A DNA stretch of 64,000 nt, taken from assembly GCA_947176915.1 (NCBI GenBank), contig CAMWSM010000003.1, forward strand, positions 5,566-69,565. The letters run 5' to 3'. Numbering within the stretch: position 1 is the stretch's first letter; the number at the start of each line of letters is the position of its first letter. The DNA is from an uncultured Porphyromonadaceae bacterium (lineage in GTDB: Bacteria > Bacteroidota > Bacteroidia > Bacteroidales > Muribaculaceae). The notes beneath the pieces are model-generated. The model was not told the DNA's origin. It worked only from the letters and a program-made list of their open reading frames with translations, and did not search any database. Positions 40,616 through 48,894 of the stretch are shown in pieces. Both the position numbers and the translations under genes were made by a program.

Positions 40616-40687
40616 CAAAGATAATAAAAATATTTAAAGTTTCATTAGCGATTTACTTGCATATATCATTTTTATTTGGTAACTTTG
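40616..40687. promoter_or_regulatory. Divergent promoters around a 24-bp box
   Basis: Minus strand TATCTTTG (40623-16) upstream of the tape measure gene; box 40632-40655; plus strand CTTG, 20 nt, TAACTTTG (40680-87). Confidence 0.7.
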
Positions 40688-40846
40688 CGTCGTGAAATTA
40701 AATCGTGTCGGGCAGGACATCGGTAAAAACATATTCAGAAGCTCAAATGAGTAAGTACACACTGCCCTGTGTATTGAAAATTTGAGCTTTCTTTTTTTTA
40801 AGAACTCCGGCAATATTGCCACAAAACCATAAATACTGAATGCCTA

Positions 40847-40977
40847 TGGCGAACAAGAAAACAATCACCGTGGAGTTAAACCGCGATTCGGTCAACGGAA
40901 GATTCGTGACCGCTGAATATGCGAAGAAACACCCGAGGACTACGCAGACCGAGCACCGGAAGAAAAAGATAAAGTGA
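40847..40977 (+). pseudogene. Small RDSxxGRF...HPxTT peptide, out of frame with its ATG (or GTG start at 40870)
   Basis: ATG 40847 reads MANKK then stops after 10 codons; the -1 frame reads TITVELNRDSVNGRFVTAEYAKKHPRTTQTEHRKKKIK*. Confidence 0.55.
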
Positions 40978-41332
40978 ACTCTTCCAGGATCCGCTTAGTC
41001 AAGAACTGAATGAGGTAGGAATATGCCTCGTCGCTTTTCTCACAGAGGACTATTCCTGCCTTTTCAAGAATGAAAAATGTAGCATGGAAGATCTCATGCT
41101 GAAGCACGGCGTAATCGCTGACGGTAGACGGCATCTGTGGTATAAACAGAATTATCTGCCCTCCATCAAGTATGATCGTCCTTCCGAGTGAAACATCGGC
41201 GAAATGTCCGGAAATCTCCTTTGCGGTCTCCTTGTCAAACATTCTGCCAAGTTCCTTCCGCAGTTCCTTCCTGCTTCCGAAGTGCACCATCACGTCCCGG
41301 TCATACAGCTCTATTGTGATAATCTTGTTCAT
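40940..41332 (-). CDS. HExxH zinc metallopeptidase-like protein, probably leaderless
   Basis: LQHEIFH...DEAYSY; TAACTTTG at 41344-37 ends 5 nt before the ATG. Confidence 0.75.
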   Translation of the reverse strand: MNKIITIELYDRDVMVHFGSRKELRKELGRMFDKETAKEISGHFADVSLGRTIILDGGQIILFIPQMPSTVSDYAVLQHEIFHATFFILEKAGIVLCEKSDEAYSYLIQFLTKRILEEFTLSFSSGARSA

Positions 41333-41472
41333 ATCGCAAAGTTAATAAATATTTATCTCCTATGCAATAGTCTCTTACAATATATGATTTAAAGCAATAT
41401 TAGCGATTTTATGCGATATAATATTAATATTTAACAATAATATTCTAAGAATCAAAAATTTATCACAGAATA

Positions 41473-41714
41473 TTTGGAGATTACAAAGTTTTAACTTAAT
41501 TTTGCAGTGCCAACACTCATAATGGTTAGACCATTCCGCTGAAGCCTCGGTTAACGGCTCGGACATACTACGGGCTATTTTTATGCCCATACATAAACGG
41601 CTACGGCTGTCATATCCAACGTGACTTTTAGGCTCTGCGGAGCTAACTGTTATGAGTGTTTGGCGACACGGATATGACAGCCGTTTTTCTGTCTTAACGC
41701 CAAACACTCATAAC
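41473..41714 (+). ncRNA. c4-like antisense/attenuator leader
   Basis: Promoter TTTG-N20-TAATTTTG; GCCAACACTCATAA (41509-22) and CGCCAAACACTCATAAC (41698-714) are complementary to GTTATGAGTGTTTGGCG (41649-65); terminator ACGGCTGTCATATCC/GGATATGACAGCCGT plus T-run. Confidence 0.75.
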
Positions 41715-41716
41715 AA

Positions 41717-42347
41717 ATGAAAGAACCAAACCTGAGCCTTATGGCTTCCGACCTGCTTCATGCGGCCACTGCCCTTGCAGGAATCCTCGACCAACCAATC
41801 GAGGGAAATCTCATTACAGTAAATTTCCGACACGCAGCCGAACTGATACGCGACGTGCAGATCTCGGCGAATCTTGCGGCCAACGAGCTTCTTCTGACCC
41901 ACTACGAGAAGGGAGGTGAACAATGAAAACGTCAAACAGAATCCTCGCGCCTATTGTGGCTTTCCTCGCCGCTCCATTCGTCATGAGGCTTTTGGTATTT
42001 ATAGTTGACAAATACGGGTGGATACCATTTGCTTGCATTCTTATCGGCACGGTGTTTCTAATCTTTCGCGCATGCGGTCTTTTCAAAAAGAAAGGAGGCA
42101 ACCAATGACCCGCTACGACTTCACGGACGCTTCCGACTTCCTTGTCGCGGTAGGAATCACACCCGAAGAACTTTACAGCGAAGTGGTGGACTCTATGGGC
42201 GAGGTGGATCCGAAGACTCCGCTCTGGCACACCCTGCTCACGCTCGCCGACTTCATTGAGTGCATCGTTCCTGCTCCTCCATCGCGATCCTCTGCATCTC
42301 CTCGGCGGTCAAAGGCTTCTTCTCGCCGTCATGAAGCTTCGTCATGA
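41717..42347 (+). CDS. Three small coupled ORFs under the c4-like leader (41717-41926, 41923-42108, about 42105-42347)
   Basis: ATGA overlaps; the second is a two-TM peptide; antisense to the late genes. Confidence 0.65.
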
Positions 42348-43151
42348 AGCCGAACCGGGCGAGCACGTCGCCCACCTCCCGCGTGCTCTTCGGTCTGAGC
42401 GGCGCCTTCGGTTTCGGTGGCTCGGAGAAGTCATAGTCGTAGTAACCCTTGTCGATAAGTAGGATATTCACGTAGTCCGCGCTGTCAAGGTGCCAGTAAC
42501 GGAGCCACGACCACAGATTGTAGTCGCCGTAGAGTCCCTTTATCTTCTCGTTGTCGGAAGAGAAAAGGAACGCGCTCCCTACCTGCTGTCCTCCTTTGCC
42601 TCCGAACCGTCCTTCTCTACCATGTTCGCCGCGCTCTCCCCACGACGCATCCTTTGCCTGACGGCTTCGCCAACCTGAGTCATAGAGAGAACGAGTGCTT
42701 GCTTTGAGCTTCCCAAGTTGGCCAAATAAAAAACCTTGTTCTCGCCTATGGCCTCGGTGGCGTTGATTGTGGCCGACACCGCCTCAGACGAGTTGTAGAT
42801 GCGTCGCCACATGAACGCGAAGAGAAGCGGAACCCACCTCAGCCACATCCCGAGCACCTGGTGAGCCGCCTTCTTAGCGTATGCCTTCCGTATCCTCGTG
42901 CTGACGCGCTTCGCCTTCCTCCGGCTCAGATTCCCCTCCTTGAGCGTCTTCTGCCAATACATCACGTCGAAGTCAAGGTTGGCCATTATCTGGTTCTGCG
43001 CCTGGCTTGTCGGGCGCAGATGCCACTTCTTACCCTTGATTTCGACAATCACGTTCCGTCCTCGCCTCACGAACTCGGCCTCCGTCAGCAACCGCTCCAT
43101 CGCCGCCTCGTCCATCGTGAAGCCCTTCTCTTCCTGCTTCTCCTCCGCCAT
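42253..43151 (-). CDS. Tail assembly chaperone (42579-43151) with a probable -1 frameshift extension to 42253
   Basis: Follows the major tail gene; the -1 frame is stop-free from at least 42738 to 42253. Confidence 0.75.
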
Positions 43152-43219
43152 GTTTTTTTTGATTAAAAAGCGGCGATTGAGCATCGTGCCAATCGCCGCC
43201 CGATCCGGTTATGTCTTCC

Positions 43220-43807
43220 TTACGCCGCCGGCGCGTCGCTCTCATACGTCGGCTTGGCGTCAAACATCATCGCCGTCTTAAGGGTCGGCAGATTGATGTA
43301 TTCGGCTGTGGCCGTGGAGTTGATCGTAAACTTCTTGCCGTCGCAGCCGATGCTCGACACGATCTTCGCCTTCGGGAAGAAGAGCGCGCGGTTGGCCTCG
43401 TCGTTGAACCATCCGAGAGGTCTCGTGATGACCGGGAGGTCGATGTGGAAGCCCACGGCGTTCTTGATGTTCTGAAGCACGGTCGAAGTCAGCCCTTCGA
43501 GCTTAACGCCCTTCAGGAACTTCACGATGTTGTCTACCGAAAGGTCCGCCATGTTGAACTTGACGGCAGCGGTGCCGTCCTTCACGATCGAGGTGATCAG
43601 CTTGCCCTGCTCGTCCTTCCAGTTATCCACTTCGGCGTCCTCGCCCACCCATTCCGACGAGTCGCCGGAAACCTGTCCGGCCGATTCCCCCGCGGCGGTG
43701 ATTTTGGTGAAGGTGGCGGTCTTGTAGTCTTCCACCTCATCGAATATCACGAGGTCGCTCTGCCCTACGAATACGGTGGACATCGCCTGTTTCTTGATTC
43801 CTGCCAT
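43220..43807 (-). CDS. Major tail (tube) protein
   Basis: Size, beta-rich composition and position between the tail terminator and the chaperone. Confidence 0.75.
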   Translation of the reverse strand: MAGIKKQAMSTVFVGQSDLVIFDEVEDYKTATFTKITAAGESAGQVSGDSSEWVGEDAEVDNWKDEQGKLITSIVKDGTAAVKFNMADLSVDNIVKFLKGVKLEGLTSTVLQNIKNAVGFHIDLPVITRPLGWFNDEANRALFFPKAKIVSSIGCDGKKFTINSTATAEYINLPTLKTAMMFDAKPTYESDAPAA

Positions 43808-43833
43808 ATTGATTGTGAATTATGAATTATACA

Positions 43834-48260: not shown

Positions 48261-48266
48261 GTTTTG

Positions 48267-48338
48267 TTGCGGGAGCGGGACTCGAACCCGCGACCTTTGG
48301 GTTATGAGCCCAACGAGCTACCACTGCTCCATCCCACA
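48267..48338 (-). tRNA. tRNA-Met(CAT), initiator-like
   Basis: TTGGG-CTCATAA-CCCAA with three consecutive G-C pairs; U1-A72. Confidence 0.9.
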
Positions 48339-48346
48339 ATGTTTAG

Positions 48347-48419
48347 CAGGACATGAAGGACTTGAACCTCCGACTTTCGGTTTTGGAGACCGACGCTCTA
48401 CCAACTGAGCCAATGTCCT
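48347..48419 (-). tRNA. tRNA-Trp(CCA)
   Basis: AGGACAT/ATGTCCT, G73; TCGGT-CTCCAAA-ACCGA. Confidence 0.92.
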
Positions 48420-48423
48420 GTTT

Positions 48424-48520
48424 GATATTACCCAACGCTCAGGTCTTCAACCTGCCTCTTGCTTCGACGCAACCGAATAAAGCAAATCTATCGGAGCGCA
48501 TGGTCGCTTTGGATAATATC
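48424..48520 (-). ncRNA. tRNA-like RNA 3 (97 nt), five-way junction inside the tRNA cluster
   Basis: 12-bp closing stem GATATTATCCAA/TTGGGTAATATC enclosing hairpins AGCG/CGCT, CCGA/TCGG, TTGC/GCAA and CAGG-TTGAAGA-CCTG. Confidence 0.6.
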
Positions 48521-48576
48521 GGTCGTTCTTTCACACGGGATGGTATGACCATATTCCCATCCCTCATTTGGGTTTG

Positions 48577-48650
48577 TGGAATCACGGGGACTCGAACCCC
48601 GAACCCTCTGCTTGCAAAGCAGACGCTCTCGCCGATTGAGCTATGATCCC
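48577..48650 (-). tRNA. tRNA-Ala(TGC)
   Basis: GGGATCA/TGATTCC with G3-U70; TCTGC-TTTGCAA-GCAGA. Confidence 0.93.
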
Positions 48651-48669
48651 ATCACGTATTATCGTTCTC

Positions 48670-48834
48670 TCATCTGTCAAGACTTATGTCTTCCATCTTT
48701 ATGTGAACTTCCCTCTTGCAGACTTTGCAGAAAAGATAAAGGTCTCCCCTGCCGTTCATATCCTCGCATTTGGCGAGAATCTTGCCTTTACGTCCGGCTC
48801 TTCTGCATTCAGGACACAATATCTCACGCTTCAT
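48670..48834 (-). CDS. 54-aa Zn-ribbon (Com-like) protein, probably leaderless; absent from the ORF track
   Basis: MKREILCPECRRAGRKGKILAKCEDMNGRGDLYLFCKVCKREVHIKMEDISLDR; two CxxC pairs. Confidence 0.8.
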   Translation of the reverse strand: MKREILCPECRRAGRKGKILAKCEDMNGRGDLYLFCKVCKREVHIKMEDISLDR

Positions 48835-48838
48835 ACGG

Positions 48839-48894
48839 CAAAGTTATTAAATTATTTTTAAATATCCAAATAAATCGCTAATGAAACTTTAAAT
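48839..48894 (-). promoter_or_regulatory. Head-operon promoter with the 24-bp upstream box
   Basis: ATTTAAAGTTTCATTAGCGATTTA-TTTG-N20-TAACTTTG. Confidence 0.8.

Follow-up and report, generated by a model that had tools for sequence, protein, structure and literature searches.

Why does a 24-bp sequence recur, letter for letter and in inverted orientation, next to two promoters 8.2 kb apart? The question arises in a window of 64,000 nucleotides, positions 5566–69565 of a contig that we call C3, from the assembly of an uncultured Porphyromonadaceae bacterium. C3 is 75.9 kb long with a GC content of 52%, and the other large contigs of the bin (3.0 Mb, 139 contigs) have 39–47%. Judged by gene content, C3 is a siphophage-like genome: it encodes a tape measure protein of 2484 amino acids (aa), an endolysin, a holin-like protein and a giant tail protein of ∼4500 aa, and the gene for the large terminase subunit lies just beyond the window edge. 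C3 also encodes a tyrosine integrase, a MerR-type protein, a Rha/ANT protein, a resolvase-type serine recombinase and a DDE transposase, and the window holds five tRNA genes, which were the only Rfam matches between 40400 and 49000. We read the repeated sequence, hereafter the box, as the operator at which a dimeric regulator encoded by the phage would control the morphogenesis and lysis operons, probably as an activator, and we give this reading moderate confidence.

The 24-mer ATTTAAAGTTTCATTAGCGATTTA was found at both promoters without a mismatch (copies a and b; Table 1), as the initial annotation had reported. The window contained no further match at up to three mismatches, and 100 dinucleotide shuffles contained none (expected count 0). 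The same bin holds a second related phage (P2), fragmented over contigs C82, C52, C55, C43 and C30, with 80–94% nucleotide identity to C3 and with boxes orthologous to those of C3. A position weight matrix (PWM) was built from the copies of both phages and scanned over the whole 3-Mb assembly, which yielded five sites each for C3 and the P2 contigs, at 23–35 bits, the best score elsewhere in the assembly being 20.9. The remaining copies differ from a and b at 5–6 positions. One of them had been taken for a partial copy at 41399–41409; a related copy does lie there, but it is a full-length diverged one at 41387–41410, ATTTAAAGcaatATTAGCGATTTt, identical at 19/24 positions. This orphan copy has no adjoining −33 element; it stands, inverted, 19 nucleotides (nt) upstream of the −33 of the promoter of a 130-aa gene and also precedes a box-less promoter at 41474 by 63 nt.

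The inverted repeat spanning copies a and b extends over 61 nt at 82% identity and takes in the whole promoter. Since the spacer of this pair is only 55% identical (box identity 1.00, spacer 0.55), the identity of the boxes points to constraint on, or conversion of, a short tract rather than to a recent duplication of the whole promoter. The 24/24 match is a local feature, from recent conversion or from common descent under selection, and is not required.

The promoters beside the box follow the consensus of the Bacteroidota primary sigma factor, sigma-ABfr, with a −7 TAnnTTTG and a −33 TTTG or TTG 19–21 nt apart (PMC7366714). Copies a and b are each followed by (C/T)TTG-N20-TAACTTTG, in agreement with the promoter predicted next to both. 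When every TTG-N18-21-TAnnTTTG in C3 was listed, 14 promoters were obtained, in four of which (class A) the box ends one base ahead of the −33 TTG. In all four, the start codon stands 4 nt past the −7 in the context CGNN-(A/G)TG-AAA, a spacing also seen at the 130-aa gene promoter and in all relatives (window 40688–40694, 48832–48838 and 41330–41336; C3 73318–73330 and 3690–3700). The mRNAs would thus be leaderless or nearly so; in B. thetaiotaomicron, only ∼3.7% of 5′ untranslated regions have fewer than 10 nt (PMC7366714). C3 has nine further canonical promoters, all without a box, which begin TTTG-CAGTG... and have long leaders; among them are the two divergent promoters at 28763 and 28905, adjacent to the Rha/ANT gene, one at 31449 near the integrase gene and the class-B promoter at 41474. 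Taken together, the genes under box promoters are those for head, tail, lysis, terminase and tape measure, plus a radical-SAM/YopX operon and a small RNA. The unit behind copy c continues into the lysis genes, and the small RNA predicted behind copy a, of ∼105 nt, folds at −29.7 kcal/mol (z = −3.2) and keeps its 5′ end, GTGAAC..., in P2, G301 and G311.

Relatives of C3 are present in IMG/VR and in human-gut metagenomes. One of them (G311) is complete, with terminal repeats and a length of 76.6 kb, and another (G301) is 94% complete; several are flagged as proviruses or are embedded in Bacteroidales contigs of 120–200 kb, e.g. 'MAG: Bacteroidales bacterium 52_46'. Among GenBank phages, megablast of 40000–49500 returned tRNA matches only, and tblastn with the major capsid protein returned no detectable homologue. 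The early regions are fully mosaic across C3 and six relatives. The lineage appears to be one of uncharacterised temperate siphophages of gut Bacteroidales.

Across this family the arrangement box-N1-TTG-N20-TAnnTTTG-N4-(A/G)TG recurs in C3 (4), P2 (3), G301 (4), G302 (7), G311 (5), G307 (5) and G304 (3), and the position of the box beside the −33 is fixed in ∼25 promoters from at least 10 related phages. The family box is approximately AAAyCTAAAG-N4-ATTATAGrTTT with a length of 24–26 bp, of which ATTTAAAG-N4-ATTAGCGATTT is the C3/P2 variant. Genomes of the lineage have 3–5 copies each, most of them at −60 to −37. The conservation of the box is not shared by the neighbouring spacer: among the seven class-A promoters of C3 and P2, pairwise identity is 0.75 in the box and 0.56 in the adjacent 20-nt spacer. 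The box therefore has the general properties of an operator, that is, several copies, a fixed register and conservation above its flanks.

A family PWM made from 19 boxes of several phages was scored on held-out boxes and on the 30-nt stretches that precede 477 canonical promoters from non-phage contigs. The held-out phage boxes mostly scored 4–27 bits, with two out-of-register boxes below zero, whereas the non-phage promoters reached at most 3.5 bits (mean −25). This separation shows that the box is specific to the phages and not a general part of canonical promoters. When a PWM made from the relatives only was run over the whole assembly, copy c of C3 ranked first, copy b of P2 third and copy b of C3 sixth, and on other contigs only chance-level A/T-rich matches appeared, with no host regulon. 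In IMG/VR, the exact or degenerate box ATTTRAAGNNNNATTAGCGATTT had 0 matches, and TTAAAGN5TN3CGATTTNNTTG gave 17 chance-like matches without a properly spaced −7, bar one in an unrelated phage of 24% GC.

The family motif is also an imperfect palindrome of significant dyad symmetry: a mean of 7.44 of 14 mirrored positions are complementary, compared to 4.97 ± 0.33 in shuffles (maximum 6.04 in 2000). Its centre, near −50, precedes the TTG by ∼15 nt. In two cases the site is turned round in place against its flanking promoters, once in P2 (C43:710–733) and once in G301 between the terminase and Zn-ribbon genes, which fits a roughly symmetric binder, and we infer that the box acts in either orientation. 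An integration host factor (IHF) consensus, an extracytoplasmic function (ECF)-type −35/−10 and hix-like symmetry were each compared with the box by inspection and rejected, as none fits. Literature searches on Bacteroides UP elements or phage late promoters yielded nothing relevant.

The box would also serve promoters in the other direction. The terminase gene (C3 73300–73460) and the tape-measure gene (40616–40688) share a cassette which, read on the strand of these genes, consists of CAAAGnTA (the reverse complement of a −7), N20, CAA (the reverse complement of a −33), N1, the reverse complement of the box, ATTTTT(T)AT, TATCTTTG, a leader with an AGAGCC hairpin, and the gene. The first copy had been described as covering the −33 zone of the divergent tape measure promoter, and the cassette bears this out, with the box spanning about −21 to −44. 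The terminase promoters of C3, P2, G301 and G302 likewise combine a perfect TATCTTTG with the box in the place of a −33 TTG, which is absent, and a search with the cassette pattern found the terminase cassette in 13 more IMG/VR contigs. In most relatives the terminase promoter is paired with the Zn-ribbon/head promoter. Since a tail and lysis module lies between the terminase and the Zn-ribbon/head genes in C3 and P2, the cassette is duplicated there as copies b and c, and a degenerate remnant of the divergent −7 is still present at copy b.

AGAGCC/GGCTCT hairpins are not confined to the cassette leader at the tape-measure gene (window 40560–40600); they recur in the terminase and tape-measure leaders and around tRNA genes of all these phages (C3 73395–73420; L004 8380–8410, 16298–16345 and 18897–18944; L005 8667–8854), and may be terminators or processing sites.

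How such a site could work is suggested by its position. A dimeric, sequence-specific phage protein would bind the box and contact RNA polymerase. At class-A promoters it would help from a site centred near −48 to −50, where the promoter-proximal half of the box, centred near −42, would occupy the classical class-II position; it would substitute for the missing −33 contact at the promoters of the terminase and tape-measure genes. Packaging, head, tail and lysis genes and a few accessory operons would in this way be switched on together, after the immunity and early promoters, which have no box. The box had been put forward as the binding site of a late regulator. The reading as a regulator site is supported, as the box is phage-restricted, fixed in register, conserved above the spacer, palindromic in the family and absent from immunity and early promoters; the word 'late' is a reasonable reading only.

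Which protein might bind the box? Thirteen genes are common to C3 and all six relatives, and 12 of them are the large terminase subunit gene, head or tail genes or lie among these. The 13th encodes a 54-aa Cys4 zinc (Zn)-ribbon protein, with 44–59% identity in 6/6 relatives; alone among the core genes, it does not look structural. In nearly all genomes it directly follows a box promoter. Furthermore, Zn-ribbon sequence groups match the variants of the box half-site, namely ATTTAAAG in C3, P2, L062 and L044, ATCTAAAG in G311, G304, G302 and L052–54, and CTTAAAG or TTTAAG in G301 and G312. We consider the Zn ribbon the leading candidate for the binder, at a likelihood that is still clearly below one half. 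Two other candidates were rejected. The MerR protein (30401–30847) was found only in C3 and P2, and G301, although 94% complete, has boxes without it; it more likely belongs to the integration/immunity module. A 154-aa protein of C3, P2, G301, G302 and G311, which has only a weak match to the uncharacterised phrog_10066 (E 2.3e-4) and an unusable AlphaFold2 model (pLDDT 46), is missing from G307, G312 and G304 and so cannot be a universal binder.

Several observations weigh against an activator operator or against the Zn ribbon as its ligand. The Zn ribbon has no detectable tie to any DNA-binding family or fold: Pfam (E ≤ 0.05) and NCBIfam gave weak generic zinc-ribbon matches below cut-offs only and no Ogr_Delta, a PDB sequence search gave no matches, and Foldseek of its AlphaFold2 model (pLDDT 74) against PDB found nothing at E < 2.9. 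Its Cys pattern resembles that of the RNA-binding Com protein of Mu, a lead against DNA binding. The match between Zn-ribbon groups and half-sites is confounded by phylogeny, and L052 and L054 have identical Zn ribbons but rather dissimilar boxes in the terminase cassette, one good half-site being kept in each. The C3/P2 box is the least symmetric of the family, weakly palindromic at 3–7 of 14 positions. Class-A promoters have good −33 and −7 elements and might fire without an activator, which would fit a repressor or a cis-acting enhancer equally. A radical-SAM/YopX operon is an atypical late function. Finally, the phage may have a host other than the bacterium of this bin, so that finding no box at the promoters of that bacterium is only indicative.

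The proposed operator can be set beside known phage switches. Late promoters of the P2/P4/186 type (P2 here being the phage of that name) are activated by the Ogr/Delta/B zinc-finger proteins. As in that system, there are few late operons per genome, each with a conserved upstream element of partial dyad symmetry that is missing from early and immunity promoters, and a very small Cys4 zinc protein encoded among late genes is the candidate for the regulator. In contrast, the box and its family consensus lack the TGT-N12-ACA of that element; the box is centred near −48 to −50 beside a good −33, compared to near −55 with a poor −35; the promoter is of the Bacteroidota sigma-ABfr type; and the Zn ribbon falls outside Ogr_Delta by Pfam at E ≤ 0.05. 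The terminase and tape-measure promoters, with a perfect −7 and the box where the −33 would be, resemble the promoters of Mu C/Mor and lambda cII, but here the box also serves a complete divergent promoter, and no C, Mor or cII homologue was found. What is new is a probable phage late-promoter operator in an uncharacterised lineage; the type of operator itself is already known. A bolder version, which we regard as speculative and give only a small chance, is that the Zn ribbon is the founder of a new family of Bacteroidota phage transcription factors, which as a dimer on the box would replace the contact between sigma region 4 and the −33 at −7-only promoters and boost the divergent leaderless class-A promoter, so that the box would be both a bidirectional late switch and a joint for module exchange.

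The strongest competitor dispenses with a dedicated regulator and has the box act as a UP-element-like or curved-DNA enhancer, an A/T-rich phased tract that boosts binding of host RNA polymerase to the strongest phage promoters through the alpha C-terminal domain. The box at −37 to −60 does occupy the classical UP position (−40 to −60), A or T makes up 19 of its 24 bases, the A-runs beside it (AAAAT) are conserved, and the class-A promoters already have consensus −33 and −7 elements, as strong promoters with UP elements do. A UP element, however, is an A/T-only tract read through the minor groove and shared with strong host promoters, and the box is neither A/T-only nor so shared: nothing like it stands upstream of the 477 other canonical promoters of the bin. 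It contains conserved G/C, with a near-invariant G at −7 from the TTG (24/25 boxes), AAAG, and GCG in C3/P2; the family motif has dyad symmetry and lineage-specific variants; and copies are found in non-UP positions, at −21 to −44 of the terminase and tape-measure promoters, where a UP element would have no role, and, in the orphan, away from any −33. We regard an enhancer of this kind as possible but unlikely.

A second competitor keeps the phage protein and reverses its effect. A repressor would silence otherwise constitutive morphogenesis and lysis promoters in the lysogen or shut them off, perhaps with opposite effects on the divergent pair in the manner of phi29 p4. This would suit relatives that are proviruses, in which class-A promoters look strong enough to kill if unregulated, the copy-c unit including lysis genes, and at the divergent promoters of the terminase and tape-measure genes the box does overlap the −33 zone. 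The phi29 switch (early A2b/A2c, late A3) similarly has a single site between back-to-back promoters that overlaps one and abuts the other. There, however, the two promoters respond in opposite ways, while here both drive morphogenesis-type genes, and no p4 homologue was found. Immunity-region promoters, the usual targets of a prophage repressor, have no box; a site ending one base upstream of the −33 is poor for occlusion and classical for activation; and terminase and tape-measure promoters without a −33 look activator-dependent. We therefore favour activation over repression and consider a repressor operator rather improbable.

The box could instead be a passive relic on a promoter cassette spread by illegitimate or homologous recombination, conserved through recent duplication only. 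Boxes do border modules that vary between phages, such as the tail/lysis module with its changing position, and a module of a 45-aa and a 130-aa gene between direct box copies is absent from G301. Yet the box is better conserved than the spacer inside the same cassette, persists in phages with major capsid proteins only 34–40% identical, and maintains its exact register to the −33, which makes a mere relic very improbable.

Least credible of all, and already the less likely alternative in the initial annotation, is that the inverted copies are crossover sites at which the phage serine recombinase (5852–6595) flips 8.2 kb from 40655 to 48871: two exact, inverted short repeats a few kb apart, a 247-aa phage protein with a resolvase N-terminal domain and box-bounded modules that are differently placed in related phages recall the Hin/Gin/Cin segments, but the copies number five per genome and face both ways, so that recombination of direct pairs would delete essential genes, both promoters lie inside the putative segment and inversion would switch no gene or promoter at its borders, the weak dyad of the C3 box lacks two inverted half-sites around a central core of the hix/gix type, the left copy is flipped in P2 and the pair direct there, all examined assemblies are collinear across the segment, and the recombinase gene is not adjacent, being 35 kb distant.

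Module borders coincide with box promoters, which suggests recombination between cassettes. The tail/lysis module (165-aa, 164-aa and giant tail proteins etc.) lies between the terminase and head genes in C3/P2 and after the tape-measure gene in G301, G302 and G311 (window 48897–63983 and beyond compared with G301 40240–52926 and G302 34301–39833). The interval 40632–41410, with the 105-nt RNA, the 45-aa open reading frame (ORF) and the convergent gene of the 130-aa HExxH protein, has direct-orientation boxes on both sides, as has its counterpart in G302 (33599 and 34301). P2 and G302 have the 45-aa/130-aa module and G301 lacks it, a pattern that fits exchange at the boxes. P2 further differs from C3 in that the box and the tape-measure gene are separated by an additional gene, for a membrane protein, and in having a different gene upstream of the Zn-ribbon promoter.

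Table 1. Boxes, promoters and neighbouring genes in window coordinates; negative positions and those beyond 64,000 are window equivalents of C3 positions outside the window.
Feature	Position	Strand	Description
Tape measure protein gene	33087–40541	−	2484 aa; phrog_9959, E = 2e-61; read from the −7-only promoter beside box a
−7 of divergent tape-measure promoter	40616–40623	−	TATCTTTG, 8 nt from the box; no −33 TTG at correct spacing
Box copy a	40632–40655	+	ATTTAAAGTTTCATTAGCGATTTA; between two divergent promoters; PWM 33.4 bits
Class-A promoter, copy a	40657–40687	+	−33 TTG 40657–59, 20-nt spacer, −7 TAACTTTG 40680–87; GTG at 40692, 4 nt on
Predicted ∼105-nt transcript of the box a promoter	40692–40800	+	GTG-started 20-codon frame; terminator hairpin 40739–40789, then T-run
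45-aa ORF	40840–40977	+	forms with the 130-aa gene a small module between box a and the orphan box
130-aa gene	40940–41332	−	phrog_1365, HExxH motif
Leaderless promoter of 130-aa gene	41337–41367	−	TTG-N20-TAACTTTG-CGAT-ATG
Orphan box copy	41387–41410	+	ATTTAAAGCAATATTAGCGATTTT; PWM 35 bits; ortholog at C82:31–54
Class-B promoter, box-less	41474–41504	+	TTG-N20-TAATTTTG, then CAGTG...; drives ∼210-nt structured leader and three small ORFs
Five tRNA genes (Ala, Trp, Met, Glu, Cys)	48104–48650	−	in head-operon transcription unit; scaffold, major capsid protein and other head genes next
Zn-ribbon protein gene, candidate box binder	48670–48834	−	54 aa, Cys4; first gene behind box b
Class-A promoter, copy b (head operon)	48839–48869	−	−33 TTG 48869–67; −7 TAACTTTG 48846–39; ATG at 48834, 4 nt on
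Box copy b	48871–48894	−	same sequence as copy a; PWM 33.4 bits
Class-A promoter, copy c	67788	−	heads unit of 165-aa, 164-aa and giant tail proteins; divergent from terminase gene
Box copy c	67790–67813	−	C3 73355–73378, outside window; adjoins −33 TTG
Class-A promoter, fifth copy	−1837	−	drives radical-SAM + YopX operon
Fifth box copy	−1835 to −1812	−	C3 3730–3753, outside window; adjoins −33 TTG

Other elements were noted in the window. Behind the box-less 41474 promoter lies a structured leader or RNA of ∼210 nt (window 41505–41716, plus strand) with an 18-bp perfect hairpin at 41648–41715. It has no Rfam match, is 75% conserved in G301, where a second, partial copy follows a similar promoter (TAATTTTG-TAGTGCCAAAT) elsewhere in the genome, and is located in L004 at 805–897 and 17553–17803. 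A 39-nt element with a GGAGCTTCAGCTCC hairpin is present in four copies, two of them identical (21732–21770, 27355–27393, 44799–44837 and 49465–49503), and, standing at the ends of minus-strand genes, is probably a shared terminator. A GC-rich island at 9000–11600 (57–61% GC) carries a gene for a 525-aa DDE protein (rve/Mu-transposase-like) that is absent from P2 and the relatives, and is probably an insertion sequence within the early region. The genes of a MutS domain I protein and the 247-aa resolvase-type serine recombinase adjoin each other (window 4388–5584 and 5852–6595), and P2 has the two as well.

Almost nothing is known about the timing of gene expression in temperate phages of gut Bacteroidales. 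The finding defines a promoter class, composed of the box, a sigma-ABfr core and a leaderless start, and a bidirectional cassette that is conserved in a widespread uncultured lineage of human-gut phages and would account for the points at which gene modules break and rejoin in these phages. It also names one small protein as a candidate regulator; if this is true, the phylum would gain a late-gene switch, and Bacteroides genetics would gain compact, phage-derived regulated promoter parts.

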